Shown in pieces: positions 1 to 16,700 of a stretch of DNA of 18,846 nt. The notes beneath the pieces were generated by a model. That model was given only the letters and a program-made list of their open reading frames with translations. It was not told the origin of the DNA and made no database searches. Each line of letters opens with the position of its first letter. Positions within the stretch are counted from its first letter, which is position 1. The translations under genes and the position numbers were made by a program. Origin of the DNA: an uncultured archaeon (GTDB lineage: Archaea; Asgardarchaeota; Heimdallarchaeia; Heimdallarchaeales; Heimdallarchaeaceae); contig CAZJUB010000050.1 in NCBI GenBank assembly GCA_964549075.1, positions 1-18,846 of the forward strand, written 5' to 3'.

Positions 1-1011
1 ATCTCATATGCTGACCAAGGAGATAAAGAAGGGATTGAATCTGCTTTATTAGCAACTGAAGATTTTGTTAAGGATGAATCTGAATTTATGTTACTTTTTG
101 GAGATATTGTCTCTGAGAAAGGTTTGGTTTTGAGAGTTCTCAATGCTTTTGAAAATACTCAATCAGATATGGCTATGACTCTCACTCTTAGAGGTGACAC
201 TGGAGATTTTGGTATAGTTGAGATAGATTCTATGGGTCTTGTTAAAAAAGCCGGAATCAAAAAAGCTGATTTATCTTCTCATAGCAATTATGTTGACGCT
301 GGTTGTTTCATTCTTACTCCAAAAATCTTAGAAGAGATTAAAACTCAACCATCTATTGGTCAAGCTATTAACAATCGCATCCAAAAAGGTGACAAAGTTA
401 CAGCTGCAATCTGGGAGAAAGAGTGGTTTGATATCGGAAAACCATGGAATATAATAGAAGCAAATAAGCTGTTGTTATCAAAAATCAAGGAATCTAGAAT
501 AGCTAAAGATGTTGAAATTGGAGCTAATGTAATAATAAAAAATGCTGTTATCATTGAGAAGGGGACTGAAATCGGTTCAGGGACAGTTCTTAATGGACCA
601 CTATACATTGGCCCCAAAACCTATATTGGAAATAACACTTTAATTCGCGATCATTGTTCTATCGGAAAGGAATCAATAATTGGCTTTTCAAGTGAAATTA
701 AGAACTCAGTATTATTTGATGATGTGAAAACCTTTGGTCTTTGTTATGTTGGTGATAGTGTTATAGGAGAAAATACGCACTTATCTTCAGGTGTAATTAC
801 GGTAAATACAGAGATACCCAAACGAGAAATAACCATGAATGTTAATGGAAAAACACACAATACAGGTTTTATGAAACTTGGAGCAATTATTGGAGACAAC
901 TGCGAAATTGGTGTTAATACTCTTATCTTTCCTGGAAAGAGAATTGCTTCTAATAGTATAGTTTTACCTGGTACATCTATAACAGAGGATATGTTAGGAG
1001 ATAATTCTTAA
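1..1011 (+). CDS. Bifunctional sugar-1-phosphate nucleotidyltransferase/acetyltransferase (archaeal GlmU-like), 5'-truncated by the window edge
   Basis: Frame is open from base 1 (ISYADQGDKEGIESALL...FMLLFGD). NTP-transferase motifs LLFGD and WFDIGKPW are followed by hexapeptide repeats (IGSGTVLNGPLYIGPKTYIGNNTLIR, YVGDSVIGEN, KLGAIIGDNCEIGVN) typical of archaeal GlmU. Confidence 0.85.
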   Translation: MSYADQGDKEGIESALLATEDFVKDESEFMLLFGDIVSEKGLVLRVLNAFENTQSDMAMTLTLRGDTGDFGIVEIDSMGLVKKAGIKKADLSSHSNYVDAGCFILTPKILEEIKTQPSIGQAINNRIQKGDKVTAAIWEKEWFDIGKPWNIIEANKLLLSKIKESRIAKDVEIGANVIIKNAVIIEKGTEIGSGTVLNGPLYIGPKTYIGNNTLIRDHCSIGKESIIGFSSEIKNSVLFDDVKTFGLCYVGDSVIGENTHLSSGVITVNTEIPKREITMNVNGKTHNTGFMKLGAIIGDNCEIGVNTLIFPGKRIASNSIVLPGTSITEDMLGDNS

Positions 1012-1013
1012 TA

Positions 1014-1042
1014 AAATAAATAATAAAAGAAAAAGAAAATAA
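1014..1042 (-). terminator. T-rich tract downstream of the UPF0147 gene (probable archaeal intrinsic terminator)
   Basis: The + strand A-rich run aaaataaataataaaagaaaaagaaaata reads as oligo-T on the - strand, between convergent genes. Confidence 0.35.
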
Positions 1043-1064
1043 GAGACAGAGTGTTTCTTAGTTC

Positions 1065-1343
1065 CTAGTAATCAGCATAATCAGTTATCTCAAGAAGTGT
1101 AATGATTTGTAATAACATTGTTCTTGCATGAGCTGGACAATTTGGGTCTTGAGATATTTCATCTAGGATTTCTATTGCATTGTTTGCTTTAACTGCTATA
1201 CTTAATTCAGGATCTGGATCTCTTATGATTTCAAGTGAAGTTGTAGCTGCTCTTCTTATATTTCTTGGAACAGTTGTATCCTCACTTATTCTTTCTAATA
1301 GCTGAACAGCTTCATCTACTTGTTCTAGGGTTTCATCGCTCAC
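1065..1343 (-). CDS. UPF0147 family small archaeal protein
   Basis: Signature DTTVPRNIRRAA...LDEISQDPNCPAHART. The GTG at 1343 follows an SD-like GGGGTG; the ORF-track GTG at 1352 is an alternative start. Confidence 0.9.
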   Translation of the reverse strand: MSDETLEQVDEAVQLLERISEDTTVPRNIRRAATTSLEIIRDPDPELSIAVKANNAIEILDEISQDPNCPAHARTMLLQIITLLEITDYADY

Positions 1344-1392
1344 TTTTAACACCCCTTCAAAATCTTATGTCCAGTATTCTGTCATACTCTCG

Positions 1393-1410
1393 CTTTTTTA
1401 ATCATTTCGG
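1393..1410 (-). promoter_or_regulatory. BRE-TATA promoter for the UPF0147 gene
   Basis: The - strand reads CCGAAATGATTAAAAAAG, a purine-rich BRE followed by a TATA-like box. Confidence 0.5.
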
Positions 1411-1463
1411 TGTTAAATAGAAAATAAGATAAGAAAAGAACAAATATCATCCTAATTATTTAA

Positions 1464-2423
1464 TCAATGATTTTTTAACCAGCGTACATATTTACTTATT
1501 CCTTCGCTTATTGATGTAGAGAGATTCCAACCAAGTTCTTTGAGTTTTTTAATGTCTACAGAGGTAAAAGTGACGTCTCCTTTCCATCCTCTTTTACCAC
1601 CAGTGAATGAATAATTAACATTTGAAAGACCAAGTATTCTAACTAGTTCTTCTGCAACTTTCAATACTGAGGTTGTCTCATCTGAACTGACATTATAAAC
1701 TTCAAATCCTTTTTGCATTTTTTTGTGAATTAATGCAAAAGCTTCAACCGTGTCATCAATATAGAGGTAACTTTTAGCTTGAGTTCCATCACCAAGAATT
1801 TCCAGCTCTTTAGGATTTTTCTTAAGTTTGTGATAGAAATCATAAATTACGCCATGAGTAGATCGAGGTCCATAGATATTACCTAATCTCAAAGAGGTAA
1901 TATTAAAGCCATAAAGTGAAGAATAACTTGAGCAATACATTTCCGCTGCCGCTTTAGCTGCTCCATAGTTACTTATAGGTTTTAGAGGATAATGTTCAGG
2001 TGTAGGGTGAACATCAGGTTCTCCATAGACTGTACCAACCGAACTAGCAAAAATAAGATTGTTAATATCCCTTTTTCTCATAAATTCTAGTATATTAAAA
2101 GTGCCAATTACGTTAGTTTCAAAATCAATTCTAGGGTTATTGACACTGAATTTCACATCAGGTTGAGCTGCAAGATGGAAAATACCATCATAATTACTAT
2201 CTAAAGACAACAAATTTTCATAATTTTGAACGCTTATTTTGTGAAAATCTGCTTTTTTCTTTTCTATATACGTCTCGAGGTAACTTAAATCGCTTTTCGC
2301 TGATAAATCATCAACAACTGTTACGAAAAAACCATTTTTTATAAGCAGATCCACTATATGAGAACCGATAAAACCACACCCTCCAGTAACCAAGATGTTT
2401 TTAGAAATGGGAATTACCTCCAA
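1464..2423 (-). CDS. NAD-dependent epimerase/dehydratase (UDP-glucose 4-epimerase-like extended SDR)
   Basis: GGCGFIG Rossmann motif, HLAA, YGAAK catalytic YxxxK, GNIYGP. Start is uncertain (TTG 2423 or ATT 2408). Confidence 0.9.
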   Translation of the reverse strand: MEVIPISKNILVTGGCGFIGSHIVDLLIKNGFFVTVVDDLSAKSDLSYLETYIEKKKADFHKISVQNYENLLSLDSNYDGIFHLAAQPDVKFSVNNPRIDFETNVIGTFNILEFMRKRDINNLIFASSVGTVYGEPDVHPTPEHYPLKPISNYGAAKAAAEMYCSSYSSLYGFNITSLRLGNIYGPRSTHGVIYDFYHKLKKNPKELEILGDGTQAKSYLYIDDTVEAFALIHKKMQKGFEVYNVSSDETTSVLKVAEELVRILGLSNVNYSFTGGKRGWKGDVTFTSVDIKKLKELGWNLSTSISEGISKYVRWLKNH

Positions 2424-2430
2424 TTTTAAT

Positions 2431-3696
2431 CTAATCAAGTGCTTTCGAGAAATTTTCCAATTCTGTTAAGAAAATCTCGACTTCATCCATAGTATTATAG
2501 ATATAAAGCGAAGCTCTTGTTACACCTTCTCCCTTACCAGGATTCAAACCAATTTGATACTGGAATGGATGAACGCACATATTTCCAGATCTCATCAGTA
2601 TTTTGTGATTTGGTATCATATCATTGAAATATTCAGTTACATCATTATGGTTCATCACATCTGATTTTGGTCTAAATGATACAAGTGCTGCTCTTTGTTT
2701 ATAGTCTAGTGGTCCCAATACTTCAAATTTCTCTAACTCTAGAATCCCTTCTAATAATCGTTTCGAAAACGATTGCTCTCTATTATGTATATTCTCCATA
2801 CCTATTTTCTGCAGATAATCTACAGCTGCTCCTGCGCCTAACATACCCCCATAGTTCTGCAATCCTGCTTCGAACTTATGAGGTGGTGGAAGGTATTTTG
2901 GAGTAATTTTTCCATTTTCATAGATGACATCTTCAATTACATCTCCACCTACGAGAAACATATCTAGTTGTTCTAATAATTCATATTTTCCATAAAGCGC
3001 ACCTATACCAGTGGGGCCGCACGCTTTATGAATACTTAGAGCACTGAAATCCACATCTAATTTCTTAACGTCGAGTTTATTATGTGGAGCAAATTGAGCT
3101 TCATCAGAAACCACCCAAGCACCATGTTCATGAGAAATTTTTACAACGTCTTCTAAAGGTGCAACAGTTCCAGTTAGGTTAGATGCATGCACAAAAGAGA
3201 CAATTTTAGTTTTATCGTCTATCTTTTCTTCAAAATCTGCAGAATTGAATGTGCCATTGGGATGTGCATCTACAATTCTTAATTCACATCCAACTTCTTG
3301 ACACTTTTTAAAAAATGGAAGCATTCCACTATGATGTTCTAGTGATGTAGTGACAATGTTTTCATCTTTCTTTATTGGTAGAGTCGCTGCAATGATATTC
3401 AATGCTTCAGTTGCATTTCTTGTCCAAACAATCTCATTATGACTCCTTGCATTAATAAAACGTGTAATCTTCATACGAGCCTCTTCTGTAAGCTGACTTG
3501 TTTCCAAACCTAAACTGTGTGTTGACCTTCCAGCTCCACCACAAGCTCCTAGATGTCTGTAATAATATTCCATAGCTTCCCAAACTTGAACTGGTTTGAG
3601 AGACATGCAAGCAGAATCAAAATATATCAAATTCTTTCCTTCATAAAGTTCGCTTAAAACAGGAAAATCTCTTCTTATACGAGCCCAAACTACCAT
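2431..3696 (-). CDS. sufS: Cysteine desulfurase, SufS-like (class V PLP aminotransferase)
   Basis: IRRDFPVL, YFDSA, TRNATEALN, LEHHS, SIHK (PLP Lys) ACGPTGIGALYGK, FEAG, RSGNMC (persulfide Cys), RASLYIYNT. ATG 3696 is chosen because the longer ORF overlaps the upstream gene. Confidence 0.88.
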   Translation of the reverse strand: MVVWARIRRDFPVLSELYEGKNLIYFDSACMSLKPVQVWEAMEYYYRHLGACGGAGRSTHSLGLETSQLTEEARMKITRFINARSHNEIVWTRNATEALNIIAATLPIKKDENIVTTSLEHHSGMLPFFKKCQEVGCELRIVDAHPNGTFNSADFEEKIDDKTKIVSFVHASNLTGTVAPLEDVVKISHEHGAWVVSDEAQFAPHNKLDVKKLDVDFSALSIHKACGPTGIGALYGKYELLEQLDMFLVGGDVIEDVIYENGKITPKYLPPPHKFEAGLQNYGGMLGAGAAVDYLQKIGMENIHNREQSFSKRLLEGILELEKFEVLGPLDYKQRAALVSFRPKSDVMNHNDVTEYFNDMIPNHKILMRSGNMCVHPFQYQIGLNPGKGEGVTRASLYIYNTMDEVEIFLTELENFSKALD

Positions 3697-3706
3697 TTTA
3701 TCATCA

Positions 3707-3943
3707 CTACTCTGAAGCTTCAAGTAATTTCCAAGCAAATCCTTCAGAAGTCCATTTTCTCTCCACAATACCTTCTTCAACAAGCTGTTTTCCAGCTAAA
3801 ATAACATCTCCTCCCGAAGAACATCCTGCACACAGATCAGGGAATAAATCTCTCATAGCCATGATTTCTTTTGTTGTAGCAGGATTTTTTTCTTTTAGTA
3901 TTGCAATCACACACTTAATGTTTCTTTCTTTGAATTTGCCCAT
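3707..3943 (-). CDS. Small winged-helix-like protein with a CxxC motif (hypothetical)
   Basis: 78 aa. Helix-strand-helix-helix-hairpin pattern (VIAILKEKNPATTKEI...GDVILAGKQLVEEGIVERKWTSEGFAWKL). TATA box 5' of the ATG. Stop lies 10 nt before the sufS ATG. Confidence 0.75.
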   Translation of the reverse strand: MGKFKERNIKCVIAILKEKNPATTKEIMAMRDLFPDLCAGCSSGGDVILAGKQLVEEGIVERKWTSEGFAWKLLEASE

Positions 3944-3965
3944 ACTATCATAAGACCAGTTTTGA

Positions 3966-3972
3966 TTATAAA
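3966..3972 (-). promoter_or_regulatory. TATA box for a leaderless wHTH-sufS-epimerase transcript
   Basis: TTTATAA on the - strand ends about 23 nt upstream of ATG 3943. Confidence 0.55.
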
Positions 3973-4013
3973 TTTAAATCATTCTACTAATGTAAAATGA
4001 AGAAATGGAGGAT

Positions 4014-4937
4014 TCAGAAAAATTCAGAAAGTGATTGTTGTCCTTTTATTTTTAAAGGAGTAGATGAGAAAGACATCAAATGACCAATAATCTTAGATAG
4101 ATTACTAACATAGAGACTATTGTTAGATTTTGTAACTAGAAGTTTTCCTTTAGTACCAACAATTTCCCCTGTTATCTGAAAACTTTTCTCAACCTCATTC
4201 AAAATAGGATTACTTTGTAGGGAAGGAATCTCACCGTAGTATGAGGCTAGTTTGTGCTCTTTATTTAATAAATCTGAATCAGCTGTCCCATAACCACTTT
4301 TTGAAATATATGAATTTACATCTTCTACTACAGTTCTAAAATCAGGTATAGACTTTGAAAGATCAAAATTAAGTTGTCTAGCTTTAGTTGTTTTGCGGAT
4401 CATTTGAGAAATCTGAAGATCTGAAGATATAGCTTTTTCCAAACTTCTTGCTACAAAACCATTTTTAGCTCTTATAACTTCAACAGCTAAATCAGCTCCT
4501 TGATTTATCCATCGTTTTAATGGATTGAAAGAAACACCGACTTTTACATTATTTGCTATAAGTGCAATATAGACAGAACAAGGATTATTTCTACAATATT
4601 CATAAGCTTGTGGATTTTGAGTACAATTACCAAAAGGTTTACTAGCATCACAGAATAAGAAGCATTTCTCGAAATCTTTCTGTTCACAGCTATAACATCT
4701 ATTATATTGATTTTCTACGCTCTTATCACATAAATAGTATTTTTGTTTATTTATTGAATGACCTATACATTTTTTCTCTTCATATATTTTTAGATGGAAT
4801 TCATCACCTGGTGTAAGAAACTTCTTGAAAGTTTGATTAGGTGCTGTATCCAAGTCTCTAAAGATAAGATATGCATAGGGAGGGGTTGCTGGATCCCATT
4901 TTGTAGCAATCAAATGTTTGTTCAACAACATCTCCAC
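4014..4937 (-). CDS. DUF2797 family Cys-rich protein with a C-terminal PIP box
   Basis: Cys cluster (KCIG...C...RCYSC...C...C...YC), VYIA...KVGVS...RWINQGA, ITGEIVGTKGKLL. Ends in QQSLSEFF. Confidence 0.8.
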   Translation of the reverse strand: MEMLLNKHLIATKWDPATPPYAYLIFRDLDTAPNQTFKKFLTPGDEFHLKIYEEKKCIGHSINKQKYYLCDKSVENQYNRCYSCEQKDFEKCFLFCDASKPFGNCTQNPQAYEYCRNNPCSVYIALIANNVKVGVSFNPLKRWINQGADLAVEVIRAKNGFVARSLEKAISSDLQISQMIRKTTKARQLNFDLSKSIPDFRTVVEDVNSYISKSGYGTADSDLLNKEHKLASYYGEIPSLQSNPILNEVEKSFQITGEIVGTKGKLLVTKSNNSLYVSNLSKIIGHLMSFSSTPLKIKGQQSLSEFF

Positions 4938-4939
4938 TT

Positions 4940-6379
4940 TTATTTGTCTGACAAGATAAGAATCTGTTCTACTCCTTCAGATAACTGCTTTTTACAATTT
5001 TCGAATATTGAATAGATTTTTTCTTTCAATTGAGAGGATATAATGCCACGTTCTAAAAGTTGTTTTATAACACCATCGTCCATTTCTTTAATTTCATTGT
5101 CTTTTTTAATTAGCTCAAGACCTAAATCTATGTATCTCAACTTTCCACCATCACAAAGATCGATAGGAGTCACAATTTTAACAATTTGCCCTAGTAACAT
5201 ATCACCTCTTGAAATTTTAACATGAATTGACCAACTTCCTTCTTTTACAATAGTTGAAGATGTATCTCCTTGTTTTATATCCACATCCAGATTGTGATGT
5301 GCCCCTCTAGAAGATCTAAAACTTCTCTTTATATACAAAACATCTGCATTCCAACTCAGTTGACCTAGTATTCTTTCTTGAGGAGGTGAAGTCAAATTAT
5401 ACTCTTGAAGATAGATAATAGAATTTTCACTGAAATCTTTTTCCAAAATTAATTCCTTTAAAATACTAGCCAGTTTGTTCCCATCAAAATCAGAAGCTAT
5501 TCTTTCCGCAAATTGAGTTGTCAATTTTAATTCTGGAGAATAAGACATAAACCAGTGATACATAGGAATACTGGGAACAATCTCATTACGAACGGAAGTA
5601 ATTTCTTCTTTGGCAGCTTTAACAAATAAGACATGAGCAACTGTTTGTCCAGGTTGCAAAATACCAGGACCATAAGAAGATCCGGATATAAGTAAATCAA
5701 GTTCCTCCGCTCTTTGGACCAACTGATCTATATCTGCTTGAATAGCTTCTCTAGATGCTTTTGTTGCACTTGTTCTCATAATTAAACCATGGTCCCTAGG
5801 TCGCAAATCTTTTCCTAATGCAAATAATTTATCTCTATCAATTTTTGGTAATTTTCTAGAGACTCTAACAAAATTAGCATCGCGTTCAAGAATAACTGAT
5901 TGACCTGGAAAATGAACAACCGTTGAACAAACTGGTAATTGGTCTTCAAATATATTGAGTTGTTTAATTTGTACTACAACTTTCTGACCTTTATGGAAAT
6001 TTGAACCAAATAAAATAGCGTTAACATTTTCTCCTATGTCAATTACAGACAAGTTTTTTTCATTATTAATATGAACAACTTTTCCATTATATACAGCATG
6101 AAGTTGGACAGGATGTTGAAGGATAATAGAATCAGGTAGTTTCTTATGTAGAAGGGCAGTTAATGCAGAAACATATTCTTCTTCTCCTTCAATAGATATG
6201 CCATAACCACCAAGTATGTCTTGAATTTCAAGATCATAAGGATCTATTTTATCTTGTACTTTAAACACTTCAATCTGTTCAGGGAGGGCTTGAACAAGAG
6301 TGTAATTCAAGTTTTCAAAAATCAATTTAATGAGAGCAATATCATAAATGCTCCTTACACGAAAGGTTGGAGAAACCAT
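4940..6379 (-). CDS. fau-1: FAU-1-like RNA-binding protein / probable ribonuclease (S1 + RNase E/G-like + DUF402-like domains)
   Basis: N-terminal VRSIYDIAL (cf. FAU-1 IRGIYSTAL), S1-like VYNGKV...VIDIG...KGQKVVVQI, VRVSRKL, GLIMRTSA, and C-terminal TPIDL...RYIDL. SD AGGTGA at 6386-6391. Confidence 0.8.
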   Translation of the reverse strand: MVSPTFRVRSIYDIALIKLIFENLNYTLVQALPEQIEVFKVQDKIDPYDLEIQDILGGYGISIEGEEEYVSALTALLHKKLPDSIILQHPVQLHAVYNGKVVHINNEKNLSVIDIGENVNAILFGSNFHKGQKVVVQIKQLNIFEDQLPVCSTVVHFPGQSVILERDANFVRVSRKLPKIDRDKLFALGKDLRPRDHGLIMRTSATKASREAIQADIDQLVQRAEELDLLISGSSYGPGILQPGQTVAHVLFVKAAKEEITSVRNEIVPSIPMYHWFMSYSPELKLTTQFAERIASDFDGNKLASILKELILEKDFSENSIIYLQEYNLTSPPQERILGQLSWNADVLYIKRSFRSSRGAHHNLDVDIKQGDTSSTIVKEGSWSIHVKISRGDMLLGQIVKIVTPIDLCDGGKLRYIDLGLELIKKDNEIKEMDDGVIKQLLERGIISSQLKEKIYSIFENCKKQLSEGVEQILILSDK

Positions 6380-6498
6380 TACAAATCACCTATAGGCAGA
6401 AAATAGTTGAAGCGAATAAAAACTTAATGAAACAAAAGTTTCTAACAACACCATAAGATGAATTTAATTTGCTAGTATTAAAAATGAAAAAGATTAAG

Positions 6499-6581
6499 TG
6501 GAGCCAGGACGGGGATTTGAACCCCGGAGGCATTTGCCAGAGGTTTTCGAGACCACCGCCGTACCGCTTGGCTATCCTGGC
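6499..6581 (-). tRNA. tRNA-Ser(CGA), long variable arm, encoded CCA
   Basis: The - strand folds as GCCAGGA TA GCCAAGCGGTACGGC G GTGGT CT-CGA-AA ACCTC TGGCAAATGCCT C CGGGG TTCAAAT CCCCG TCCTGGC T CCA. Confidence 0.92.
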
Positions 6582-6653
6582 AGAAATCCATGAAACACAA
6601 TGATGGTTGGGTATAATTAATGCTGGAATAAAAAAATCTTTGTGTGATTTATC

Positions 6654-7247
6654 TTATTTTTCTATTCTTATAAATTGCCTACTTCCGCAACTTTTACAAC
6701 CTTTAGACGAACAATTTGAACAATAATAGAGTCCGCATTTAGCACACTTAGATGTTGCTTTATTACCGCAGCTAGAACAGCTTTTAACAATAACTCTTCC
6801 TTTAACTTTTATTCCAAGATATGCAATCCCCACTACACCACCAAGAACTGCGATAACTATTATGATTGTTCTAAAAACTCGCCAAACAGGGCTTGTATTA
6901 GGGGTAGAATCTCTAACAACTTTATACACTGTTACATTGAAGTATTCAATTAAATCTGAATCTACAGTCCAAGAGACAAGAGGTTTTACTTCTCCTACTT
7001 TCATACCTAAAACAGCATCGACAAAATGCACATTTACTGCATTCGAATTAACCTCGCATTGAAATGGACCAGATTCAGTGTATTCTACCTGGAATTCACC
7101 ATTTCTGTAACTCACAAAGCCTGTATTAATAACATCATCATATTCGACTCCCGCATATTTATCATAGGCACTTACTGAAAGTAAGGTATTGAATAGAAGA
7201 ATAGAGACCAAACCTATAAGGATAATAGAAGAACGAATATGCTTCAT
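6654..7247 (-). CDS. Single-pass membrane protein: signal peptide, degenerate FKBP-like domain, TM helix, C8 zinc finger
   Basis: Hydrophobic N-terminus ending VSA; FVDAVLGMKVGEVK FKBP helix motif; TM IIIVIAVLGGVVGIAYLGI; CSSC-x7-CAKC-x4-CSNC-x4-CKSC. Confidence 0.8.
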   Translation of the reverse strand: MKHIRSSIILIGLVSILLFNTLLSVSAYDKYAGVEYDDVINTGFVSYRNGEFQVEYTESGPFQCEVNSNAVNVHFVDAVLGMKVGEVKPLVSWTVDSDLIEYFNVTVYKVVRDSTPNTSPVWRVFRTIIIVIAVLGGVVGIAYLGIKVKGRVIVKSCSSCGNKATSKCAKCGLYYCSNCSSKGCKSCGSRQFIRIEK

Positions 7248-7269
7248 TGAATGAGGTGAGATATAGAAA

Positions 7270-7284
7270 CTTAAAAAAATTTCG
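7270..7284 (-). promoter_or_regulatory. BRE-TATA promoter for the 6654-7247 gene (leaderless)
   Basis: The - strand reads CGAAATTTTTTTAAG, ending about 23 nt before ATG 7247. Confidence 0.5.
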
Positions 7285-7295
7285 AAGTATACGAT

Positions 7296-7940
7296 TTATT
7301 TATACCTAATCAATGATCTGCCTTTACAATTTGGACATCCATTAGAAAAACATTTATTACAGAAACTTTTACCGCAACTCTTGCATTTACCAACAGCAAG
7401 AGATTTACAATTTGAACATCGTTTACCAAAAATCTTAGGTGAGTACCTATATACTAAATAAGAAGCACCAATAACAGCACCTAAACCAAGAACCACTCCT
7501 AAAATGATTAACAAAGTTCTTCCTAAATCCCCACCAGAACTAGGGTAAACATCAGTATAGGGATAATGATTGATTGCGTAAATTTTTAGATTTTGATAAA
7601 CCAAAGTTTCCCCAGCATACACCCCATATGTAGGATCAGAAGGAAGGAAACCTTTTTCTGGAGGGATTACTACATTGTTTTTTGTTTGTCCATTTTTCAT
7701 TCCTAATAGTACATCAAACAAACCAGGAGGATTAACAATTTCTGGTGCAAAATTAATTGAAATTGCATTGTCTTCTGTTATTGTTTCAATTAATAACGAA
7801 TTAACATAGAGCTGATAACCATAATCAACAAAATCTCCTTGTTCTAACACATATTTATCAGCATAACATGGAGCATAATTAGTAAAAGGTGCGACTATAA
7901 TAGGCAAAAACAATATTAGTAACAAAGCATAGCGCTTCAT
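7296..7940 (-). CDS. Single-pass membrane protein: signal peptide, FKBP-type PPIase-like domain, TM helix, C8 zinc finger (paralogue of the neighbouring gene)
   Basis: MKRYALLLILFLP signal; EQGDFVDYGY...PGLFDVLLGMKNGQTKNNVVIPPEKGF...YAGETLVY matches the archaeal FKBP/SlyD core; TM LLIILGVVLGLGAVIGASYLVY; CSNC-x7-CKSC-x4-CNKC-x4-CPNC. ATG 7940 is preferred over TTG 7955. Confidence 0.85.
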   Translation of the reverse strand: MKRYALLLILFLPIIVAPFTNYAPCYADKYVLEQGDFVDYGYQLYVNSLLIETITEDNAISINFAPEIVNPPGLFDVLLGMKNGQTKNNVVIPPEKGFLPSDPTYGVYAGETLVYQNLKIYAINHYPYTDVYPSSGGDLGRTLLIILGVVLGLGAVIGASYLVYRYSPKIFGKRCSNCKSLAVGKCKSCGKSFCNKCFSNGCPNCKGRSLIRYK

Positions 7941-8077
7941 CAAACCTAAAGGCAACCAACAAAATAAAAAGCTATCGAATTGTTATTCAGTAAATAAAAG
8001 TAGAAAGATAGCCTATAAACCCGGGATCAATTATAAAATTAAAATTTCTGTATATTAAATTTGAAGAAAAATAAGAT

Positions 8078-8186
8078 TGGCGAGGCAGCCGGGATTTGAA
8101 CCCGGGTCGAAGGAGTGACAGTCCCCCATCATGGGTCAGAAAAGGTACACAACCTTTCTCTTTAGGCCGAGCTAAACTACTGCCCC
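8078..8186 (-). tRNA. tRNA-Asp(GTC) with a 31-nt non-canonical intron at position 21/22 (intron 8132-8162), encoded CCA
   Basis: The - strand reads GGGGCAG TA GTTT AGCTCGGCCTA [AAGAGAAAGGTTGTGTACCTTTTCTGACCCA] TGAT G GGGGA CT-GTC-AC TCCTT CGAC CCGGG TTCAAAT CCCGG CTGCCTC G CCA. Anticodon at 8117-8119; G73. Confidence 0.9.
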
Positions 8187-8222
8187 GTCTTTTTAGCTTC
8201 GTTTCTTTTCTCCTTCTTTTTG

Positions 8223-8231
8223 TTTTTTAAA
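8223..8231 (-). promoter_or_regulatory. TATA-like box upstream of tRNA-Asp
   Basis: TTTAAAAAA on the - strand, about 40 nt 5' of the mature tRNA start. Confidence 0.4.
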
Positions 8232-8364
8232 TATGTCGATTAATTCTAAAAAGGTTGAATTAAATCAAATTACGCTTTTCATGAATGCATCCTAATATAC
8301 ACTTACTAGTATCTGTTACTTTATTAGGAGATTCAAAAAATGTTGGTGGTTTAGAAACACAATA

Positions 8365-8934
8365 CTATTCTAAACCAACTTCTACACGTTTTTTCTCAAC
8401 AGCCCTCATTAGCTCTTTTGAGAATGTTACAAAAGCTTCTTCTACTTTTTCTCCTGTTTTCGCAGAAGTAATGAAAAATGATTCTTTTGGTAAATCTAAT
8501 TCCTCAATTATCTCGTCAATACTCTCTTGTGACACAGCAACTTGCTCTTTGAGATCTGCTTTGTTTCCAATTAGGAAATAAATCACATCTTCCTCTACAC
8601 TTTCCAATCCTTTTTTCCAAGCTTTAACAGAATTAAGTGTGTTATTTCTTGTTAAATCAAAGACCAAGAAACAACCTCTGGCTCCTCTGTAAAATTTTTC
8701 TCTGACAGAAGCAAATCTCTCTTGACCGCCAATATCACTTATTAGAAAAAGAACTTCATCCTTTCCTACGAATAATTGCTTGCTCAGAATGTCAACACCA
8801 ATAGTCATTAAATAAGATGCTTGAAATCGATTATGAACAAATCTAGTAATTAAGGAACTCTTACCTACGCCAGGATCACCTAGTAAAACTATTTTGAAGA
8901 TGTACTTCTTACCATGTCCTTCTTCTTCTGCCAT
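8365..8934 (-). CDS. Rab-like small GTPase (Ras superfamily; eukaryotic signature protein)
   Basis: FKIVLLGDPGVGKS (G1), YLMTIGVD (G2), DIGGQERF (G3), FYRGA, LVFDLT, GNKAD (G4), TSAKTG (G5). Confidence 0.95.
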   Translation of the reverse strand: MAEEEGHGKKYIFKIVLLGDPGVGKSSLITRFVHNRFQASYLMTIGVDILSKQLFVGKDEVLFLISDIGGQERFASVREKFYRGARGCFLVFDLTRNNTLNSVKAWKKGLESVEEDVIYFLIGNKADLKEQVAVSQESIDEIIEELDLPKESFFITSAKTGEKVEEAFVTFSKELMRAVEKKRVEVGLE

Positions 8935-9003
8935 AATTTTCCCCTTAACTTTTTCAGTTACTTCCTTAATATTAATGTTGTGCTTGTCTTTTGCATTATT
9001 TTC

Positions 9004-9408
9004 TCAAATATTAAATTTCTTCACAATATCCTTTGCTAAGCTCTCATCAAGTTCTGATTGTTCTGGTATTACAATAACACCATCATTTGGAAATCTCGGA
9101 ACAAGATGGAAATGAATGTGTCCTATAACTTGTCCAGCGTCCTTACCATTATTCTGGAAAATACTTATGCCTGTTGCTCCTGTTGCTTCTTTCAGCTTAT
9201 TTGTAATTATTGGAAGTTTATTCAGAAAATTCATTTCTTTATCAGGAACATCCATAATCTGTTCATAATGTTTTTTTGGAATTACTAAACTGTGACCCTT
9301 TGATATGGGGAATAAGTCTAGAAAAACTTTTACTTCTTCATCCTCATAAAGTGTATAACTAGGTATTTCTTCACGTATAATTTTGCAGAAAAGACAATCA
9401 TCAACCAT
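9004..9408 (-). CDS. HIT family nucleotide hydrolase (Hint-like)
   Basis: DCLFCKII, FLDLFPISKGHSLVIPKKH, NNGKDAGQVIGHIHFHLVPR. Start placed at ATG 9408 (MVDDCLFC). Confidence 0.93.
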   Translation of the reverse strand: MVDDCLFCKIIREEIPSYTLYEDEEVKVFLDLFPISKGHSLVIPKKHYEQIMDVPDKEMNFLNKLPIITNKLKEATGATGISIFQNNGKDAGQVIGHIHFHLVPRFPNDGVIVIPEQSELDESLAKDIVKKFNI

Positions 9409-9490
9409 TATTAATTCACTCTGTTCTTTTTCTAATGGTTTACATTTCATCTTTTTCAGTTTTTTGAATATAGAAAAATTTTGCATTAAA

Positions 9491-10558
9491 TTAATTTTCA
9501 ACAACCTTAATCTTTAAACCATCATCTTGTTGGAGAATGTAAGCTAAACCACCATTATCATTAATAGCTTCAGCGACCACATCTTCAGTTCCAGGGGAAT
9601 AAGCTAGGAAAGAACCACCATTACCGCTTCCAAGTAATTTACAGCCTATAGCTCCAGCATTCTGAGCATGATCAATGAGATTTTGCATTCTTTGTGTTAC
9701 ATTCTCAAAATACGTTTTTTGAAATTCATGATGTCTATTAATGAGGGAAGCTATTTTTTCTGGTGATGGATTTGTATTCTTCAATAATTGATATCCCTCC
9801 CTAACAACATCTCTAATTCCTAAAATTCCTAGTAATCTCTGTAAATTTAAATCCTTATTTTTCTCATATTCGAAAAAGACATCTTCAAATGAACCTAATT
9901 CTAAACTGAAATTTTCATCTCTCTCCAGCATCAACTGTATACCTTGATAAATTTCTTTTTTTCTCTTTATCAAAGTTTGAATTGTTTCTTTCTTTGTTAG
10001 AGTATCACCAATAACAATACCGTTGAGTTTAGGTTCTAATTTCTCTAAATTATAGGGCTCATGACATTCTAAATAAACTAGGTTGCCAATTACACTTGCA
10101 TAATGGTCCATCATTCCACCAGGTTCTCCCAGATTAACAACTTCTGCTACATAAGCATTCCATGCAAGTTCTTTTTCTAAAGAATTATACTGTGAAGCTT
10201 TATCAAAAAAACCTATTAAAGCTGCACAAAAAGCTGATGATGAAGATAATCCCTTACCAATTGGTAGATTAGACTTAACTGACATATTTGCGCCAAAATC
10301 CTTGGGAAAAAATTCTTGATAAATATTAAAGGCAGATCTCACGTAATCTCTTCGTTTTAAATTACGTTGTTTTTTATTGGTAAATACAATCTTTTTCTTT
10401 AAGTCTTCTAAATTTACTGAAATTTTACCACTTGTGTTTGTTCTTCCTTGAATTTCTATTCTTTGATTTATTGCCAGAGTTATTACTTCTAAACCCATAT
10501 AGTCCACATCTTCTCCAAAAAGGCACACTCTTCCAGGTGATGAAGTGACTATTTTCAT
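9491..10558 (-). CDS. GHMP kinase, galactokinase/sugar-kinase-like
   Basis: PGRVCLFGEDVDY (GalK-type N-terminal motif), PIGKGLSSSSA ATP loop, GMMDH, GAIGCKLLGSGNGG. Confidence 0.88.
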   Translation of the reverse strand: MKIVTSSPGRVCLFGEDVDYMGLEVITLAINQRIEIQGRTNTSGKISVNLEDLKKKIVFTNKKQRNLKRRDYVRSAFNIYQEFFPKDFGANMSVKSNLPIGKGLSSSSAFCAALIGFFDKASQYNSLEKELAWNAYVAEVVNLGEPGGMMDHYASVIGNLVYLECHEPYNLEKLEPKLNGIVIGDTLTKKETIQTLIKRKKEIYQGIQLMLERDENFSLELGSFEDVFFEYEKNKDLNLQRLLGILGIRDVVREGYQLLKNTNPSPEKIASLINRHHEFQKTYFENVTQRMQNLIDHAQNAGAIGCKLLGSGNGGSFLAYSPGTEDVVAEAINDNGGLAYILQQDDGLKIKVVEN

Positions 10559-10570
10559 AATAATCTATTC

Positions 10571-11893
10571 TCATTTCTCTTGATATTTCTTTGCTTCAAT
10601 TTTTAATGTATTAAAATCCAAAGTTTTGTATTTCTCATTATGATATAGGATTTTACCATCAACCATTGTCATATTTACATCTTTTCCGGAAGAAGAATAG
10701 ACTATGTGAGATATCGGATCATATAGTGGTAGAGCATTTACTTGGTCAACGTCTACCATAATTAAATCGGCTCTTTTTCCTTTTTCTATAGAACCTATTT
10801 CCTTATCCCAATTTAATGCCCTAGCACCATCAATAGTAGCCATTTGAAGGGTTCGAAAAGCTGGAAGTGCTTTTTCATTCAGAAGTTTGACTTTTTGAAG
10901 AAAAGTGGCTAATCTCATATCTCTAAACATATCAAAATTATTATTACAAGGAGGACCATCTGTACCTATTCCTACAATTACACCTAATTCGTGATATTTC
11001 ATAACATCGCAAATTCCTGAAGCTAATTTACAATTACTACTTGGATTATGTGTTATTCTAGTATTGGTTTTCTGTATTAATTCATATTCTACCTCATCAA
11101 GCCATATACCATGTGCTAGGATAGTTTCTGGTCCTAATGCATTTAGTTTATTTAAAGATTTGATATATGTATCCTTGTACATTTTTTCCACTTCAGCACA
11201 TTCAAATTGTGATTCAGAGGCATGTGTATGCAGCATTAGATCTTGATTTTCCTGCTTGGTTTCAACAATTAACTTCATTAATTTAGGAGAACATGAAAGA
11301 AGGAACCGTGCGTTTAAAGAATATTTTATTCTACCACCTTGGGTCTGATGATACTTATCTATTTGTTTTCTTGCAGTTTCAATCACAGTTTCTGTATCTT
11401 CTTTAATGATATCTGGAAAATCATTATCAGTATCCATCAACATTTTTCCAATTCTCGTTCTTATTCCGCTTTCAATGGCTGCTTTGATTGCTAACTCAGA
11501 ATCATGCGTTGTTAACATATCGTTAGTTGTCGTGGTTCCTGTCCTTATCATCTCTGCAAAACCTAGAAGTGAGGAGTAATAAACTTCCTCCGGAGTATAA
11601 TTTGCTTCACCAGGCAAAACAACCTGCCTTAACCACTCTAAAAGAGCATAATCATCTGCTTTTCCTCTTAAAAATGCTTGAACACTATGACTATGAGTAT
11701 TAATTAATCCTGGTAAGAGAATTTTATTCTCTCCATCAATAATTTGTTTCGCAGAATAATCTTTGTTGATTCTTTTTCTAGTACCAAAATCAACAATTAT
11801 TCCTTCAGAAACATATAATGCAGCATCTTTTATGATTGAATTTTGTTCATCACATGTAACCAGCATGTCAGCTTCTAAAATCGTGTCCTTCAA
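10571..11893 (-). CDS. Amidohydrolase-superfamily nucleoside deaminase (MTA/SAH or 5'-deoxyadenosine deaminase-like)
   Basis: LPGLINTHSH, HTHASES, LAHGIW, HNPSSNCKLASG, GTDGPPCNN, GSIEKGKRAD. TTG start. Confidence 0.9.
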   Translation of the reverse strand: MKDTILEADMLVTCDEQNSIIKDAALYVSEGIIVDFGTRKRINKDYSAKQIIDGENKILLPGLINTHSHSVQAFLRGKADDYALLEWLRQVVLPGEANYTPEEVYYSSLLGFAEMIRTGTTTTNDMLTTHDSELAIKAAIESGIRTRIGKMLMDTDNDFPDIIKEDTETVIETARKQIDKYHQTQGGRIKYSLNARFLLSCSPKLMKLIVETKQENQDLMLHTHASESQFECAEVEKMYKDTYIKSLNKLNALGPETILAHGIWLDEVEYELIQKTNTRITHNPSSNCKLASGICDVMKYHELGVIVGIGTDGPPCNNNFDMFRDMRLATFLQKVKLLNEKALPAFRTLQMATIDGARALNWDKEIGSIEKGKRADLIMVDVDQVNALPLYDPISHIVYSSSGKDVNMTMVDGKILYHNEKYKTLDFNTLKIEAKKYQEK

Positions 11894-11967
11894 CTTAACC
11901 AGTTTTTTTATTGTAAATAACTTAATAAATCCTATTCTTTTTTGTATTTTTGTCCAAGAGGGATTCC

Positions 11968-12627
11968 ATGATTGAGGATCAACTTGCTGAACTAACAGAA
12001 AAAATGCTCATCTGCGAAGCTTGCCATCTTAAAGATAGCAGAACTAAAGTTGTTCCTGGGATTTATGGACCTGTCAATGGATTGTGCTTTATTGGCGAAG
12101 CTCCAGGATATTATGAAGATCAGCAAGGAGTACCGTTTGTTGGACGTTCAGGAAAGTTACTAGATGAAATGCTAGCTGGTATAGGAATGAAAAGAGGAGA
12201 TGATAAAAGCATACTAAAAATAGTCAAATGTCGACCAACAACATAAGATGGAAATAATAGAACTCCCACAGAATCTGAACTTCGCTTTTGTGGCGAGAGG
12301 TGGCTATATAAACAGCTTAAACTCTTATCACCCAAACTCATTGTTACGATAGGTGGAATCCCATTACGATTTTTTATACCAGGTGCGTCTGTCACTAGAA
12401 ATATTAAGAAATCTTATGATACAAATCTTGGAATTAAGTTGTACGTAACCTATCATCCTGCCTATATTTTGCGGAATTATAATTTACTTGAAGAATATAA
12501 AGAGCACTTTGTTGATATAAAGAATCTATACGTAAATTTATTGAATAAACAAGGTTTAGATCATCCAAAAACTAAAATAATTGGATCTCAAAGTGAACAG
12601 AAATCTTTAACTGATTACTTTAAGTAA
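11968..12627 (+). pseudogene. udg: Family-4 uracil-DNA glycosylase interrupted by one in-frame TAA at 12244-12246 (pseudogene, sequencing error or recoding)
   Basis: CEACHL, FIGEAPG..ED..GVPFVGRSG, VKCRP, then T*DGNNRTPTESELRFC...PKLIVTIG...TYHPAYILR, all in one frame to TAA 12627. The two ORF-track pieces (11950-12246 and 12439-12627) share this frame. Confidence 0.85.
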
Positions 12628-12651
12628 CACATTGTTTGTTTGAAAGAATAG

Positions 12652-12658
12652 TTTATAA
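12652..12658 (+). promoter_or_regulatory. TATA box for a leaderless phosphohexomutase transcript
   Basis: GAAAGAATAG-TTTATAA ends 23 nt upstream of ATG 12682. Confidence 0.55.
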
Positions 12659-12681
12659 TTAAAGTTGAAACCTGTTGATTA

Positions 12682-14073
12682 ATGATAAAGAACTCAAAGC
12701 TTTTTGGTACAGCTGGAATAAGAGGAGCTTTCGGTTCCAAAGTTACAGCTGAATTAGTTTTTCAAGTCAGTCAAGCAGTTACAGAATTGTATCCTTCTGA
12801 AAGCATATTAGTAGGACACGATGCAAGAACTTCATCAGAAGCTTTGGGGCAATGTGCATCTGCTGCCATTTCTCTTGCAGGTGGGAAAGTATACAAAATC
12901 GGTCTTTGTACTTTTCCGGTAATTGCAAATCAAACTCTCAACAAAAAGCATTCTGTGGCAATATATATTACTGCATCTCATAACCCTCCAACAGATAACG
13001 GAATAAAGGTTTTCAGAGAAGGTCGAGAAGCTATAATGGATGAACAAGATGAAATAGAAGAGTTCATTAGACAAAGACAAGAGGCAAAATTAGGTTTCAT
13101 TTATGAAAAATGGGATAAGATTCAACAACAGCTAGAAATAACAAATGCTACTGAACAATACTTCAAGAGAATTACAAAAGAGATAACTATTGAGGGGGGG
13201 GGTAGGAGGATTATACTTGATTGCGCAAATGGTCCTATGTCAGAACTTGCTCCTTTATTACTAACACATTACGGTTTTCAGACCACTACCATCAATTCGA
13301 ATATAGATGGATTCTTTCCTGGAAGACTAGCTGAACCTAGCCCAGAAAATCTTGGGGTTCTAATAGATCTTTGTAAGAAAGAAAAGACATTAGGTATAGC
13401 TTTTGATGGTGATGGAGATAGATTAGCTGTAATAAATGAAGAGGGAGAATTTGTGGAATTATCTCGAGTCAATGCTTTTCTTGGATTACAGGCTATAGCA
13501 GAACAAGGACCAGGTAAAATAGTAGTTAGTATTGATTCATCTACAACAATTGACAGAACTGTAGAGAAAGAAGGAGCTGTTGTTGTTAGAACAAAACTGG
13601 GAGAATTGCATACAGAATGTTCAAAACTTTTGAAGAATGGAGAAAAGATCATTTTTGCTGCTGAACCATGGAAACCTATTTTTCCAAAATGGGGTTTCTG
13701 GATTGATGGATTATATGGTCTTCTAAAAATTTTGAAAGTGATAACAAGCCGTAAAACAACCGTATCTGAAGCTATGAAAAGCATTCCACTTCATATTGCT
13801 AAGAGAAAAGCTTACTATATTGATGCCAATAAAGTTGAAGAAATATTTGAAAAATGTAAATTGAAACTCAAAAAAGCGCTAGAAAACGAGAGCAAAAAAG
13901 AACTTACTATCGATGGTTTAAGATATGATCTTGAAGATAGCACATGGGTTCTAATACGTAAATCAGGAACAGAACCTAAAATTCGCATTTACTATGAAGC
14001 TCCAAACAACACCCGGTTTGAGTGGTTGGAAAACATTGTTAAAGAGTTAGAAAAAATAATCCATGAAGAGTGA
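12682..14073 (+). CDS. Alpha-D-phosphohexomutase (phosphoglucosamine mutase / PMM-PGM family)
   Basis: LFGTAGIRG, GHDART, ITASHNP (phospho-Ser), FDGDGDR (metal loop), IRKSGTEPKIRIY. Confidence 0.93.
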   Translation: MIKNSKLFGTAGIRGAFGSKVTAELVFQVSQAVTELYPSESILVGHDARTSSEALGQCASAAISLAGGKVYKIGLCTFPVIANQTLNKKHSVAIYITASHNPPTDNGIKVFREGREAIMDEQDEIEEFIRQRQEAKLGFIYEKWDKIQQQLEITNATEQYFKRITKEITIEGGGRRIILDCANGPMSELAPLLLTHYGFQTTTINSNIDGFFPGRLAEPSPENLGVLIDLCKKEKTLGIAFDGDGDRLAVINEEGEFVELSRVNAFLGLQAIAEQGPGKIVVSIDSSTTIDRTVEKEGAVVVRTKLGELHTECSKLLKNGEKIIFAAEPWKPIFPKWGFWIDGLYGLLKILKVITSRKTTVSEAMKSIPLHIAKRKAYYIDANKVEEIFEKCKLKLKKALENESKKELTIDGLRYDLEDSTWVLIRKSGTEPKIRIYYEAPNNTRFEWLENIVKELEKIIHEE

Positions 14074-14455
14074 TTTGATGGTTTCTGAAGTAATTAAAGA
14101 AGAACTTAGATTAACAAATGAAAGATTAAGACTAACTATTGTAATTCTCCTGTTTTGGGTAATATTAACGACTTTAGACATCACCTCAACAATAAATTTA
14201 GGAGAAGAAGGAACTGAATTCGTAATCTATGCTATTATGGCAACTGGAGCAATATTACTAATTTTATGTTCATTGGCTATACAAGCGCAACCTTTGATTA
14301 GTAGGATGCTAAAAAATAGAAAAAACATTGATGAATTCTGGGAAACTGAAGAAAAATTAAATCCAGATATTGAAAAGAGAAGAAAAGCCAGTGAAGCAAC
14401 TATGATTATTGGAATATTAGTTATGTTTATAGCTTTACTTTTTGTTGCTGTCTAA
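14063..14455 (+). CDS. Hypothetical membrane protein (about 3 TM helices)
   Basis: 130 aa with three hydrophobic segments. The start overlaps the mutase stop, suggesting translational coupling. Confidence 0.7.
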   Translation: MKSDLMVSEVIKEELRLTNERLRLTIVILLFWVILTTLDITSTINLGEEGTEFVIYAIMATGAILLILCSLAIQAQPLISRMLKNRKNIDEFWETEEKLNPDIEKRRKASEATMIIGILVMFIALLFVAV

Positions 14456-15430: not shown

Positions 15431-15723
15431 CCTATTTTTCTCAAAATCGTCTCATTCTTAAAATTTCTGTTATCACAAAGATATACTGTTATTTTTGTTT
15501 GATTAAAGAATCAAAAAGTGAATAAAACATGACCTTCCAATAAGTTCTAGTCATTTTTCCAGTCGAAAAAGAGGGGTTTTGAAAGAACCAGAGGTCACTG
15601 AAAGTATTTAGCACCTTATTAGAAGGTTGAACGAAAAACTAATTGAATGTATCAATAGAGAAAACATCAGAATACTATGAATTTACCGGGTTTAAATATT
15701 GATCTACTTATTATAATACAAAG

Positions 15724-16691: not shown

Positions 16692-16700
16692 AAAGGGATT

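Follow-up and report, generated by a model that had tools for sequence, protein, structure and literature searches.

The contig CAZJUB010000050.1 (NCBI GenBank assembly GCA_964549075.1) of an uncultured archaeon of the family Heimdallarchaeaceae, positions 1 to 18,846 of which are referred to below as the window, contains two adjacent genes for proteins designated P0002 and P0001. In both proteins, an FKBP-like domain predicted to lie outside the cell is connected by a single membrane helix to a short, predicted cytoplasmic tail with eight cysteines, and the locus raises the question of what such a tail does on the inner side of the membrane. In the initial annotation, made from the sequence alone, the pair was taken for a peptide-sensing receptor that signals through the tail. 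Here the tail is read, with a slight preference, as a docking or assembly tag rather than as a signalling output, because it was found on only two classes of folding catalysts, FKBP-type proteins and thioredoxins, and a family of sensors would be expected to have varied ligand-binding ectodomains.

P0002 is the 214-residue product of positions 7296-7940, and P0001 is the 197-residue product of positions 6654-7247. The genes and their parts, all located on the minus strand, are as follows (evidence in brackets):

7296..7940, minus strand: gene of P0002, an FKBP anchored in the membrane, its FKBP domain complete and its tail an eight-cysteine (C8) finger (list of open reading frames, translation, 19 homologues at 46-95% identity)
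7860..7940, minus strand: signal peptide of P0002, residues 1-27, MKR, hydrophobic core and C-Y-A / DKY (hydrophobic segment 1-25; cleavage predicted from the pattern)
7569..7850, minus strand: FKBP-fold ectodomain of P0002, residues ~31-124 (AlphaFold2 model, Foldseek, family profile)
7449..7517, minus strand: transmembrane helix of P0002, residues ~142-164, with GVVLG and GAVIG (hydropathy and GxxxG scan; AlphaFold2 helix 138-171)
7299..7418, minus strand: cytoplasmic C8 finger and C-terminal strand of P0002, residues 175-214, tail charge +12 (motif, invariant cysteines, finger model)
6654..7247, minus strand: gene of P0001, paralogue that shares the helix and finger and whose FKBP-like ectodomain is shortened (list of open reading frames, translation, 10 homologues)
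7167..7247, minus strand: signal peptide of P0001, residues 1-27, V-S-A / YDKY (hydrophobic segment 4-28; cleavage predicted from the pattern)
6912..7151, minus strand: shortened FKBP-like ectodomain of P0001, residues ~33-112 (sub-threshold FKBP_C match, alignment gaps relative to P0002, own clade-invariant residues)
6810..6878, minus strand: transmembrane helix of P0001, residues ~124-146, with GGVVG (hydropathy and GxxxG scan)
6657..6779, minus strand: cytoplasmic C8 finger and C-terminal strand of P0001, residues 157-197, tail charge +10 (motif, invariant cysteines)

The evidence that carries the reading of the tail as a tag comes from outside the pair. A search of the same genome with P0002 revealed a third tail-bearing gene (contig C25, 12457-13248), encoding a protein of 263 residues with a signal-like N-terminus, a Redoxin/Thioredoxin domain with the motif WCSPC, a helix and the same C8 finger. 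The protein scores 65.3 bits for Redoxin (cut-off 26.6) and 32.5 bits for Thioredoxin (cut-off 23.5), and its best NCBIfam match is ResA with 92.6 bits, below the equivalog cut-offs for ResA, TlpA and DsbE; according to these profiles, it is a TlpA/ResA-like thioredoxin. A profile of the finger was then run against 5.8 billion proteins of 87-2000 residues. The 98 matches at E <= 0.001, classified by a hidden Markov model of the FKBP columns of alignment A3 (40 full-length relatives, hand-picked for diversity from 79 proteins) and by the motif WC.PC, comprise 86 FKBP-type proteins, 11 thioredoxin-type proteins and one N-terminally cut fragment of the FKBP type, and no other class of ectodomain was found on the finger among them.

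Over 72 residues, the tails of the C25 thioredoxin and of P0001 share 55.6% identity; with the P0002 tail, the thioredoxin tail shares 34%. A tree of tails (helix and finger, 80 columns) was built from 76 of the 136 family proteins with the finger, at most 16 of them chosen at random from each group defined by a regular expression, together with P0001. All 12 thioredoxin tails group in it with P0001-type tails (support 99/93), apart from P0002-type tails, which indicates that a single lineage of tails exchanged its ectodomain. The tail acts like a module that can be moved from one folding catalyst to another. Genomes with three copies in a row contain a middle copy (L013 2226-2810, plus strand; L014 848-1444, minus strand) with a P0001-like ectodomain, ~36-40% identical to P0001 versus 32% to P0002, and a P0002-like finger; its relatives form a separate tail clade (support 100/99). 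The mosaic of the middle copy suggests recombination between the paralogues in these genomes.

At a distance of 2.3 kb from the thioredoxin-finger gene, a 430-residue fusion of a thioredoxin-like domain with DsbD_TM (CcdA-like) is encoded (C25:14071-17772; L027 1477-2769, minus strand). The two genes together fit an outward-facing thiol-redox pathway. Between them, two small proteins of no known family, each with a signal peptide and a helix, are encoded.

The finger has the pattern C-x2-C-x7-C-x2-C-x4-C-x2-C-x4-C-x2-C at residues 175-205 of P0002 and 157-187 of P0001, and the motif scan confirmed the identical spacing already seen in the initial annotation. All eight cysteines are invariant in the 21 sequences of alignment A1 (the two proteins and 19 homologues); when 19 finger segments from the window and its relatives were aligned, with duplicates and near-identical rows excluded, the eight cysteines and one glycine were invariant. 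The exact spacing is retained in 112 of the 136 family proteins with a finger. The sixth ligand is replaced in 20 of the 136, by His in three, by Asp in two and by Ser in 15. The 15 proteins with Ser also have a first knuckle of the form C-x-H-C and a longer first loop, a combination that would be compatible with ligands 1, 2 and 6 belonging to the same zinc site; these variants count as one event at most, because they probably belong to one clade.

Similarity of the finger to known domains was found at low levels. Among solved structures, the finger profile matched the B-box of ZFYVE19/ANCHR (2d8v, E 0.0045) and B-box 1 of PML (2mvw, E 0.071), with all others above E 0.2. The scores for ANCHR-like_BBOX (PF22586, cut-off 27) are 19.6 bits in P0002 and 12.4 bits in P0001, those for zf-B_box (PF00643, cut-off 24.1) are 11.0 and 12.2 bits, respectively, and among the 40 members of A3 the two families match at E <= 0.01 in five and two proteins. 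The NCBIfam collection gave no family above its cut-off for P0001, P0002 or the finger alone. The model of the finger alone (pLDDT 85) contains two short strands and no helix of four or more residues; the model of the whole P0002 has a short helix at residues 195-198 of the finger. Foldseek with the finger model gave no match at E <= 0.001 (best E 0.042, 3lrq); the neighbours at E 0.04-0.3 are U-box, RING, B-box 1 and ZZ domains, including the RING of BIRC7 (E 0.10). Alignment by VIA-align against 48,161 chains gave no Z >= 5, and the best values, 4.0-4.3, belong to RING (BIRC7, 4.3), ZZ and B-box domains and to a small archaeal ribosomal zinc protein. Both B-box1 and B-box2 domains are among the fold neighbours.

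The ligand spacing of B-box type 1 is C-x2-C-x7-10-C-x2-C-x4-5-C-x2-C/H-x3-6-H-x2-8-H. The spacing of the archaeal finger (x2, x7, x2, x4, x2, x4, x2) lies within these limits; its first six ligands share the x2-x7-x2-x4-x2 arrangement with B-box type 1 and ANCHR-like B-boxes, and His or Asp occurs as the sixth ligand in its variants, as in B-boxes. It differs from B-boxes in that the last two ligands are cysteines, separated from the sixth by only four residues, in its sub-threshold Pfam scores, and in its position beside a membrane helix, as opposed to the RBCC/TRIM context of B-boxes in eukaryotes. The finger is probably a B-box-like domain of the cross-brace kind, below every membership threshold, and we infer that it binds two zinc ions with a cross-brace topology of ligands. 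The weak profile, Foldseek and VIA-align neighbours agree with the earlier proposal of an intracellular zinc finger to the extent of making it a candidate two-zinc RING/B-box-like domain.

Two other observations concern the finger. A 98-residue open reading frame without an obvious ectodomain on contig C63 of the same genome (L056 877-1173, minus strand) contains C-x2-C-x7-C-x2-C-x4-C-x2-C and, much farther on, C-x2-C. Its E value against the finger profile is 2.4e-4 and its zf-B_box score 22.4 bits (cut-off 24.1); it may encode a soluble protein related to the tail finger. A likeness of residues 165-214 of P0002 to Opy2 in the ESM Atlas (best value 0.76, with Opy2 on 14% of cluster members) was below the useful level and was discarded.

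The position of the tail relative to the membrane was deduced from both ends of the proteins. Hydropathy and the sequence pattern bear out the earlier description of a signal-like N-terminal segment and of DKY in both mature N-termini, DKY being located just past the predicted cleavage site (CYA|DKY in P0002, VSA|YDKY in P0001). Small residues at positions -3 (C/A/T) and -1 (A) of the putative P0002 site are conserved in A1, and A27, Y28 and D29 of P0001 are invariant or at least 90% conserved in alignment A5 of the P0001 clade. A lipobox at Cys25 of P0002 was rejected, as relatives have Ala, Thr or Ser in its place and the context is unfitting; cleavage by signal peptidase I is preferred.

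One later hydrophobic segment is present in each protein, at residues 137-165 of P0002 and 120-150 of P0001. The GxxxG motifs reported earlier for both helices, GVVLG at 148 and GAVIG at 154 in P0002 and GGVVG at 136 in P0001, are present and conserved. In alignment A4 of the P0002 clade, G152 is invariant and L151 is conserved in at least 90%, as is G148 in A1; in the P0001 clade, G140 is invariant and G136 is at least 90% conserved (A5). A heterodimer prediction for mature P0002 (27-214) and P0001 (27-197) gave a score of 0.00 against a mark of 0.32, with controls absent, and says nothing for or against binding.

Net charges were calculated for the 136 of 145 family proteins that match the finger pattern, the tail being taken from eight residues before the first cysteine to the C-terminus and the ectodomain bounds being crude. 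The median is +10 for the tail (range +5 to +14) and -9 for the ectodomain; the respective values are +12 and -9 in P0002 and +10 and -8 in P0001. On the grounds of the signal-like N-terminal segments, the location of all eight finger cysteines on the basic side of the helix and the thioredoxin paralogue, the architecture and a type-I orientation, with the N-terminus outside and the C-terminus inside, are very probable. The charge asymmetry supports the cytoplasmic location of the finger assumed from the beginning. P0001 also contains two glycosylation-type sequons, NVT and NTS.

The AlphaFold2 model of P0002, built from 21 sequences, has a mean pLDDT of 80, with 93-97 over residues 31-120. 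Foldseek with this model gave 21 matches at E <= 0.001, all of them FKBPs among the matches listed. The top matches are the SlyD variant delta-IF, from which the insert has been removed (4odq, E 1.5e-4, TM-score to target 0.71, rmsd 1.8), and FKBP13 (4nnr, TM-score to target 0.76) from the lumen of the endoplasmic reticulum (ER); the transmembrane FKBP11 is also present (E 2.4e-4); for SlyD delta-IF, FKBP13 and FKBP2, TM-scores to target are 0.71-0.77 and rmsd values 1.8-2.5. The profile of A3 matched 58 sequences of solved structures at E <= 0.001, the best being wheat FKBP73 (7.4e-20); MtFKBP17 (1.1e-10), human FKBP2 (2.8e-9), FKBP11 (3e-5) and the prolyl isomerase domains of trigger factors are among the further matches. 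Pfam FKBP_C (PF00254) is matched by 27 of the 40 members of A3 at E <= 0.01 (best 8.7e-21). The homology is read at the level of the family, whose profile lies above the threshold, as the single proteins, with 13.0 bits in P0002 and 16.4 bits in P0001 (residues 43-88), are under the FKBP_C cut-off of 21.1.

The modelled ectodomain of P0002 has the compact form of FKBP12/13 and no insert-in-flap, in agreement with the earlier description of an FKBP-like core lacking the insert. The deletion of the flap proposed for the 6654-7247 copy is likewise seen at the level of the alignment: P0001 has no stretch corresponding to approximately residues 99-110 of P0002, and the motif PPxxG[FY], which precedes this stretch, is lost in the P0001 clade.

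The pocket and catalytic residues of FKBP12, which we take to be Y26, F36, D37, F46, V55, I56, W59, Y82 and F99, correspond in the MAFFT and FKBP2 alignments to Y42, I51, E52, I60, V69, N70, L74, F98 and Y115 of P0002. Phe36-Asp37 is replaced by Ile51-Glu52, Trp59 by Leu74, Tyr82 by Phe98 and Phe99 by Tyr115. Glu52 is at least 90% conserved in the P0002 clade (A4), and the canonical Phe-Asp and Gly-Tyr are retained in more distant family members. In P0001, Gln53-Val54 take the place of Phe-Asp and Y82 has no counterpart; the P0001 clade has invariant residues of its own, e.g., W93 and Y102 (A5). Because the flap and the equivalent of the catalytic Asp are lost, P0001 is probably a conserved non-catalytic derivative.

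The longest frame of P0002, 7296-7955, opens with an alternative TTG start at 7955 and includes an in-frame ATG at 7940; the latter was taken as the better start because most of the 19 homologues in A1 begin with M-K/R-R at this position. The two open reading frames are separated by 48 bases. In BLASTP, P0001 and P0002 are 29% identical over 188 columns (E 2e-19), which identifies them as paralogues, and together with the script-based motif scan this upholds the earlier description of two adjacent paralogues with one architecture (signal-like segment, FKBP-like ectodomain, GxxxG helix, C8 finger). In two RNA libraries, contigs were found for positions 7588-7857 alone, within the FKBP region of P0002, at 95-100% identity; this is a weak hint that the P0002 gene or a close relative is transcribed, since DNA carry-over is possible, and such contigs are uninformative on transcript ends and co-transcription. 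A snoRNA-like Rfam match at 7628-7726 (30 bits against a gathering score of 47), located inside the coding region, was dismissed as chance, and opposite-strand open reading frames of 50-66 residues at 6862-7178 were dropped as unsupported.

An exhaustive search of representative proteins revealed 50 clusters at E <= 0.001 among 1.84 billion. In a survey of 400 genomes of the phylum, where the best seven candidates per genome were scored and all counts are lower bounds, at least 85 genomes contain some match. Among the matches listed, those spanning both the FKBP part and the finger belong only to the class of the window, and other classes have one part only, FKBP or finger. Spanning matches were found in at least 30 of 30 genomes of its own family (f1), 1 of 1 in f2, 12 of 12 in f4, 12 of 22 in f5 and 1 of 2 in f6; the counts for f3 and f7 are 0 of 3 and 0 of 12. 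The two types of gene are adjacent in ~26 of the 31 genomes of the family (hand count), three copies in a row occur in the genomes G020, G021 and G039, and a single copy is present in other families. A scan of species-representative genomes with two narrow peptide patterns, which detects close relatives only, yielded 68 stretches, of which 25 were confirmed: 21 in Heimdallarchaeota, one in Thorarchaeota, one in "Promethearchaeati", two in further archaea and none in bacteria.

No Pfam or NCBIfam model describes the combination of FKBP, helix and finger, and full-text searches of the literature, supplements excepted, found no description of this architecture or of such a tail on a thioredoxin. 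The combination is absent from described families in these sources, as the initial annotation had supposed; P0002 models as an FKBP, the finger was not placed outside the cell, and no described family of this kind that is widespread beyond the Asgard archaea was found.

Upstream of the pair, at 8365-8934 on the minus strand, a Ras-family small GTPase is encoded (Pfam Ras, 148 bits), and downstream, at 4940-6379 on the same strand, a 479-residue RNase E/G-like protein (40.5 bits). Within the genus the gene order is HIT, Ras-like GTPase, P0002, P0001, RNase E/G-like protein, with Ras present at 10 of 11 loci and the RNase E/G-like gene at 8 of 11; the latter still adjoins the pair in two other genera of the family. 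The single-copy relatives in other families have different neighbours, neither Ras nor RNase E/G-like genes being adjacent, and a functional link with the Ras-like GTPase was dropped for this reason.

The pair is flanked by two tRNA genes of the same strand. An element at 8078-8186 (minus strand), between the Ras-like GTPase gene and P0002, was identified by ARAGORN in intron mode as tRNA-Asp(GTC), with an intron of 30 bases and the terminal CCA encoded in the gene; it was missed by ARAGORN with default settings and by Rfam at E <= 0.01. The over-long open reading frame of one relative (P0093) may read through the same tRNA-like element. A gene for tRNA-Ser(CGA) lies directly downstream of P0001 at 6499-6581, minus strand (ARAGORN; 52.3 bits for tRNA in Rfam). 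Three genomes from a single genus of f5 (L017, L018 and L022), which are not independent evidence, have the single-copy relative beside a conserved block of genes for myo-inositol-1-phosphate synthase, a UbiA prenyltransferase, a BpsA_C/AdoMet_dc fusion and a cytidylyltransferase-family protein. An open reading frame of 122 residues near this block is profilin-like, with 21.2 bits (cut-off 25).

In the arrangement that would follow from the reading of the tail as a tag, P0002 and P0001 would be type-I membrane-tethered proteins of the FKBP family whose substrates, at the cell surface, are exported proteins. P0002, in which the FKBP domain is complete, would likely serve as a prolyl isomerase or chaperone, and P0001 more likely as a non-catalytic binding partner or chaperone subunit. 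The very basic B-box-like finger would be a non-catalytic tag that holds surface folding catalysts at a site specified from the inner side of the membrane. The likeliest partner would be the ribosome-bound Sec translocon, at the junction of SecYE-beta and the ribosome, where folding helpers meet emerging chains; this partner is put forward tentatively, by analogy with human FKBP11.

FKBP11 (FKBP19, PDB 9n9j) has the same layout as the archaeal proteins: a signal peptide, a non-cytosolic FKBP domain, one helix and a short positively charged cytosolic tail. It is described (PMC12804085) as an adaptor, the positively charged C-terminal helix of which is located beside uL22 and 28S rRNA H24 at the ribosome-bound secretory translocon. 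The alignment of the family profile with FKBP11 takes in both the FKBP domain and the helix (query 35-165, chain 57-182). The match is weaker than those to FKBP2 and to plant and archaeal FKBPs, and so no special kinship is shown.

Several findings weigh against the arrangement. No result obtained here ties the tail to ribosomes or Sec, and no partner of the tail was found. The FKBP11 tail is a basic helix and the archaeal tail a Cys8 finger, which limits the parallel to the layout. The gene neighbourhood, consisting of Ras-like GTPase, HIT and RNase E/G-like genes within the genus and of others elsewhere, contains no link to a translocon. E3 domains of the RING and U-box types are among the closest structural neighbours of the finger, at weak scores, and four genes with UQ_con (E2-like) domains are present in the genome. 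Prolyl isomerase activity of P0002 is plausible and uncertain, because only ~2 of the 9 canonical pocket residues (Tyr26 and Val55 in FKBP12 numbering) are unchanged, the remainder being mostly hydrophobic. The complete proposal is that of a co-translocational folding station in Heimdallarchaeia, in which one shared type of finger would dock three folding catalysts, namely the active FKBP, the degenerate FKBP and the thioredoxin, to the Sec translocon with its bound ribosome; it is offered as a rather doubtful one.

The same finger neighbours and E2-like genes, the latter above the Pfam cut-off, are what speaks for the reading of the initial annotation, in which a type-I receptor, as a homo- or heterodimer, detects peptides outside the cell that are unfolded or contain proline and signals through a RING/B-box-like finger serving as an E3 ligase or adaptor; the conserved GxxxG motifs of both helices and the conserved tandem pair would also fit a dimer. 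PA-TM-RING E3 ligases, such as RNF13 and RNF43, consist of an ectodomain, a single helix and a cytosolic RING, and the archaeal pair resembles them in layout, with a small cross-brace-like finger in the cytosol. Its ectodomains, however, are FKBP-like and not PA domains. RING families of Pfam have no match at E <= 10 in P0001 or P0002 and none at E <= 0.01 among the 40 members of A3. RING ligand patterns are C3HC4 or C3H2C3 with a first loop of nine or more residues, whereas the finger has a first loop of seven residues and no His ligand, and none of its structural matches reached the Foldseek and VIA-align thresholds given above. A central E2-binding helix is typical of RINGs; the models of the finger contain at most the short helix 195-198. 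We know of no E3 activity for the archaeal pair. As the leading reading, the receptor was given up on account of the tail shared with a thioredoxin, the restriction of the tail to folding-catalyst ectodomains and the missing RING match, and it is now regarded as improbable.

Self-association or contact with the membrane surface is an unlikely but more closely related function of the tail: the fingers and GxxxG helices would cluster folding catalysts, or the basic finger would bind anionic lipids, with no part played by ribosomes or the translocon. Such a function overlaps with docking, since one tag could do both. It agrees with the net charge of +5 to +14 beside the membrane, with GxxxG motifs kept in both clades, with three tail-bearing genes in one genome and tandem pairs or triples in relatives, and with the similarity to the B1-box of PML, for which the title of one entry, 6imq, refers to multimers (Foldseek rmsd 0.9 over 28 columns). 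Signatures of lipid binding of the FYVE type, however, are absent. FYVE domains carry a basic His-rich motif that binds phosphoinositides; this motif is missing from the finger, where the sequence before the third cysteine pair is VGKCKSCG or TSKCAKCG, Pfam gave no FYVE match at E <= 10 for P0001 and P0002, and FYVE chains appeared only at E 0.2-7 in the finger-profile search. A zinc- or redox-sensitive switch that reports the cytoplasmic thiol or zinc status and tunes the outward-facing folding catalysts is highly improbable. Eight invariant cysteines within 31 residues, the tail on a thiol-disulfide oxidoreductase paralogue and the nearby DsbD_TM gene would suit it, but nothing found is specific for switching, and the sixth cysteine is replaced by Ser, His or Asp in the 20 variants, as in ordinary structural B-box sites.

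Other known systems are related to the archaeal proteins through their outer domains. The archaeal cytoplasmic SlyD-like FKBPs MjFKBP26 (3prb/3pr9) and MtFKBP17 (1ix5) have a homologous core (E 0.0098 for 3prb and 1.1e-10 for 1ix5); the pair differs from them in having no insert-in-flap and in being exported, membrane-anchored and provided with a finger tail. The lipoprotein PrsA, FkpA and Mip are surface or periplasmic prolyl isomerases of bacteria. Like the pair, they have a domain of a prolyl-isomerase family at the outer face of the cytoplasmic membrane, for the folding of exported proteins, and BpMIP (8p3c) is among the fold matches; unlike the pair, they are soluble or anchored by a lipid or an N-terminal helix and have no cytoplasmic domain. 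Membrane-anchored extracytoplasmic thioredoxins are represented by TlpA, ResA and DsbE in bacteria and by TMX proteins in eukaryotes. The C25 protein is similar to TMX proteins as a type-I membrane thioredoxin with a cytosolic tail, and it differs from TlpA, ResA and DsbE in its C-terminal helix anchor and Cys8 finger, besides the scores below their equivalog cut-offs.

Membrane-tethered folding helpers at the exit of the secretion channel occur both in bacteria (PrsA, TlpA) and in the ER of eukaryotes (FKBP11, TMX), and to our knowledge none of these four carries a cytoplasmic zinc finger. In the proteins described here, one conserved tail is common to two unrelated classes of folding catalysts, and matches combining FKBP and finger were seen only in Heimdallarchaeia among the matches listed. 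Heimdallarchaeia are the archaeal class usually placed closest to eukaryotes, and the interest of the finding lies in the presence, in these closest archaeal relatives, of a eukaryote-like finger together with a parallel to FKBP11 and TMX. If the tail had E3 activity, it would represent a membrane-bound ligase of a new type in archaea. If it docks to ribosomes or the translocon, a finger of the B-box/RING kind would gain a function outside ubiquitin biology, a eukaryote-style cross-brace finger serving as a ribosome/translocon adaptor. The folding station would then be a prokaryotic equivalent or precursor of the eukaryotic ER system to which FKBP11 and folding catalysts of the TMX type belong, and a piece of ER-style co-translocational folding would predate eukaryotes.

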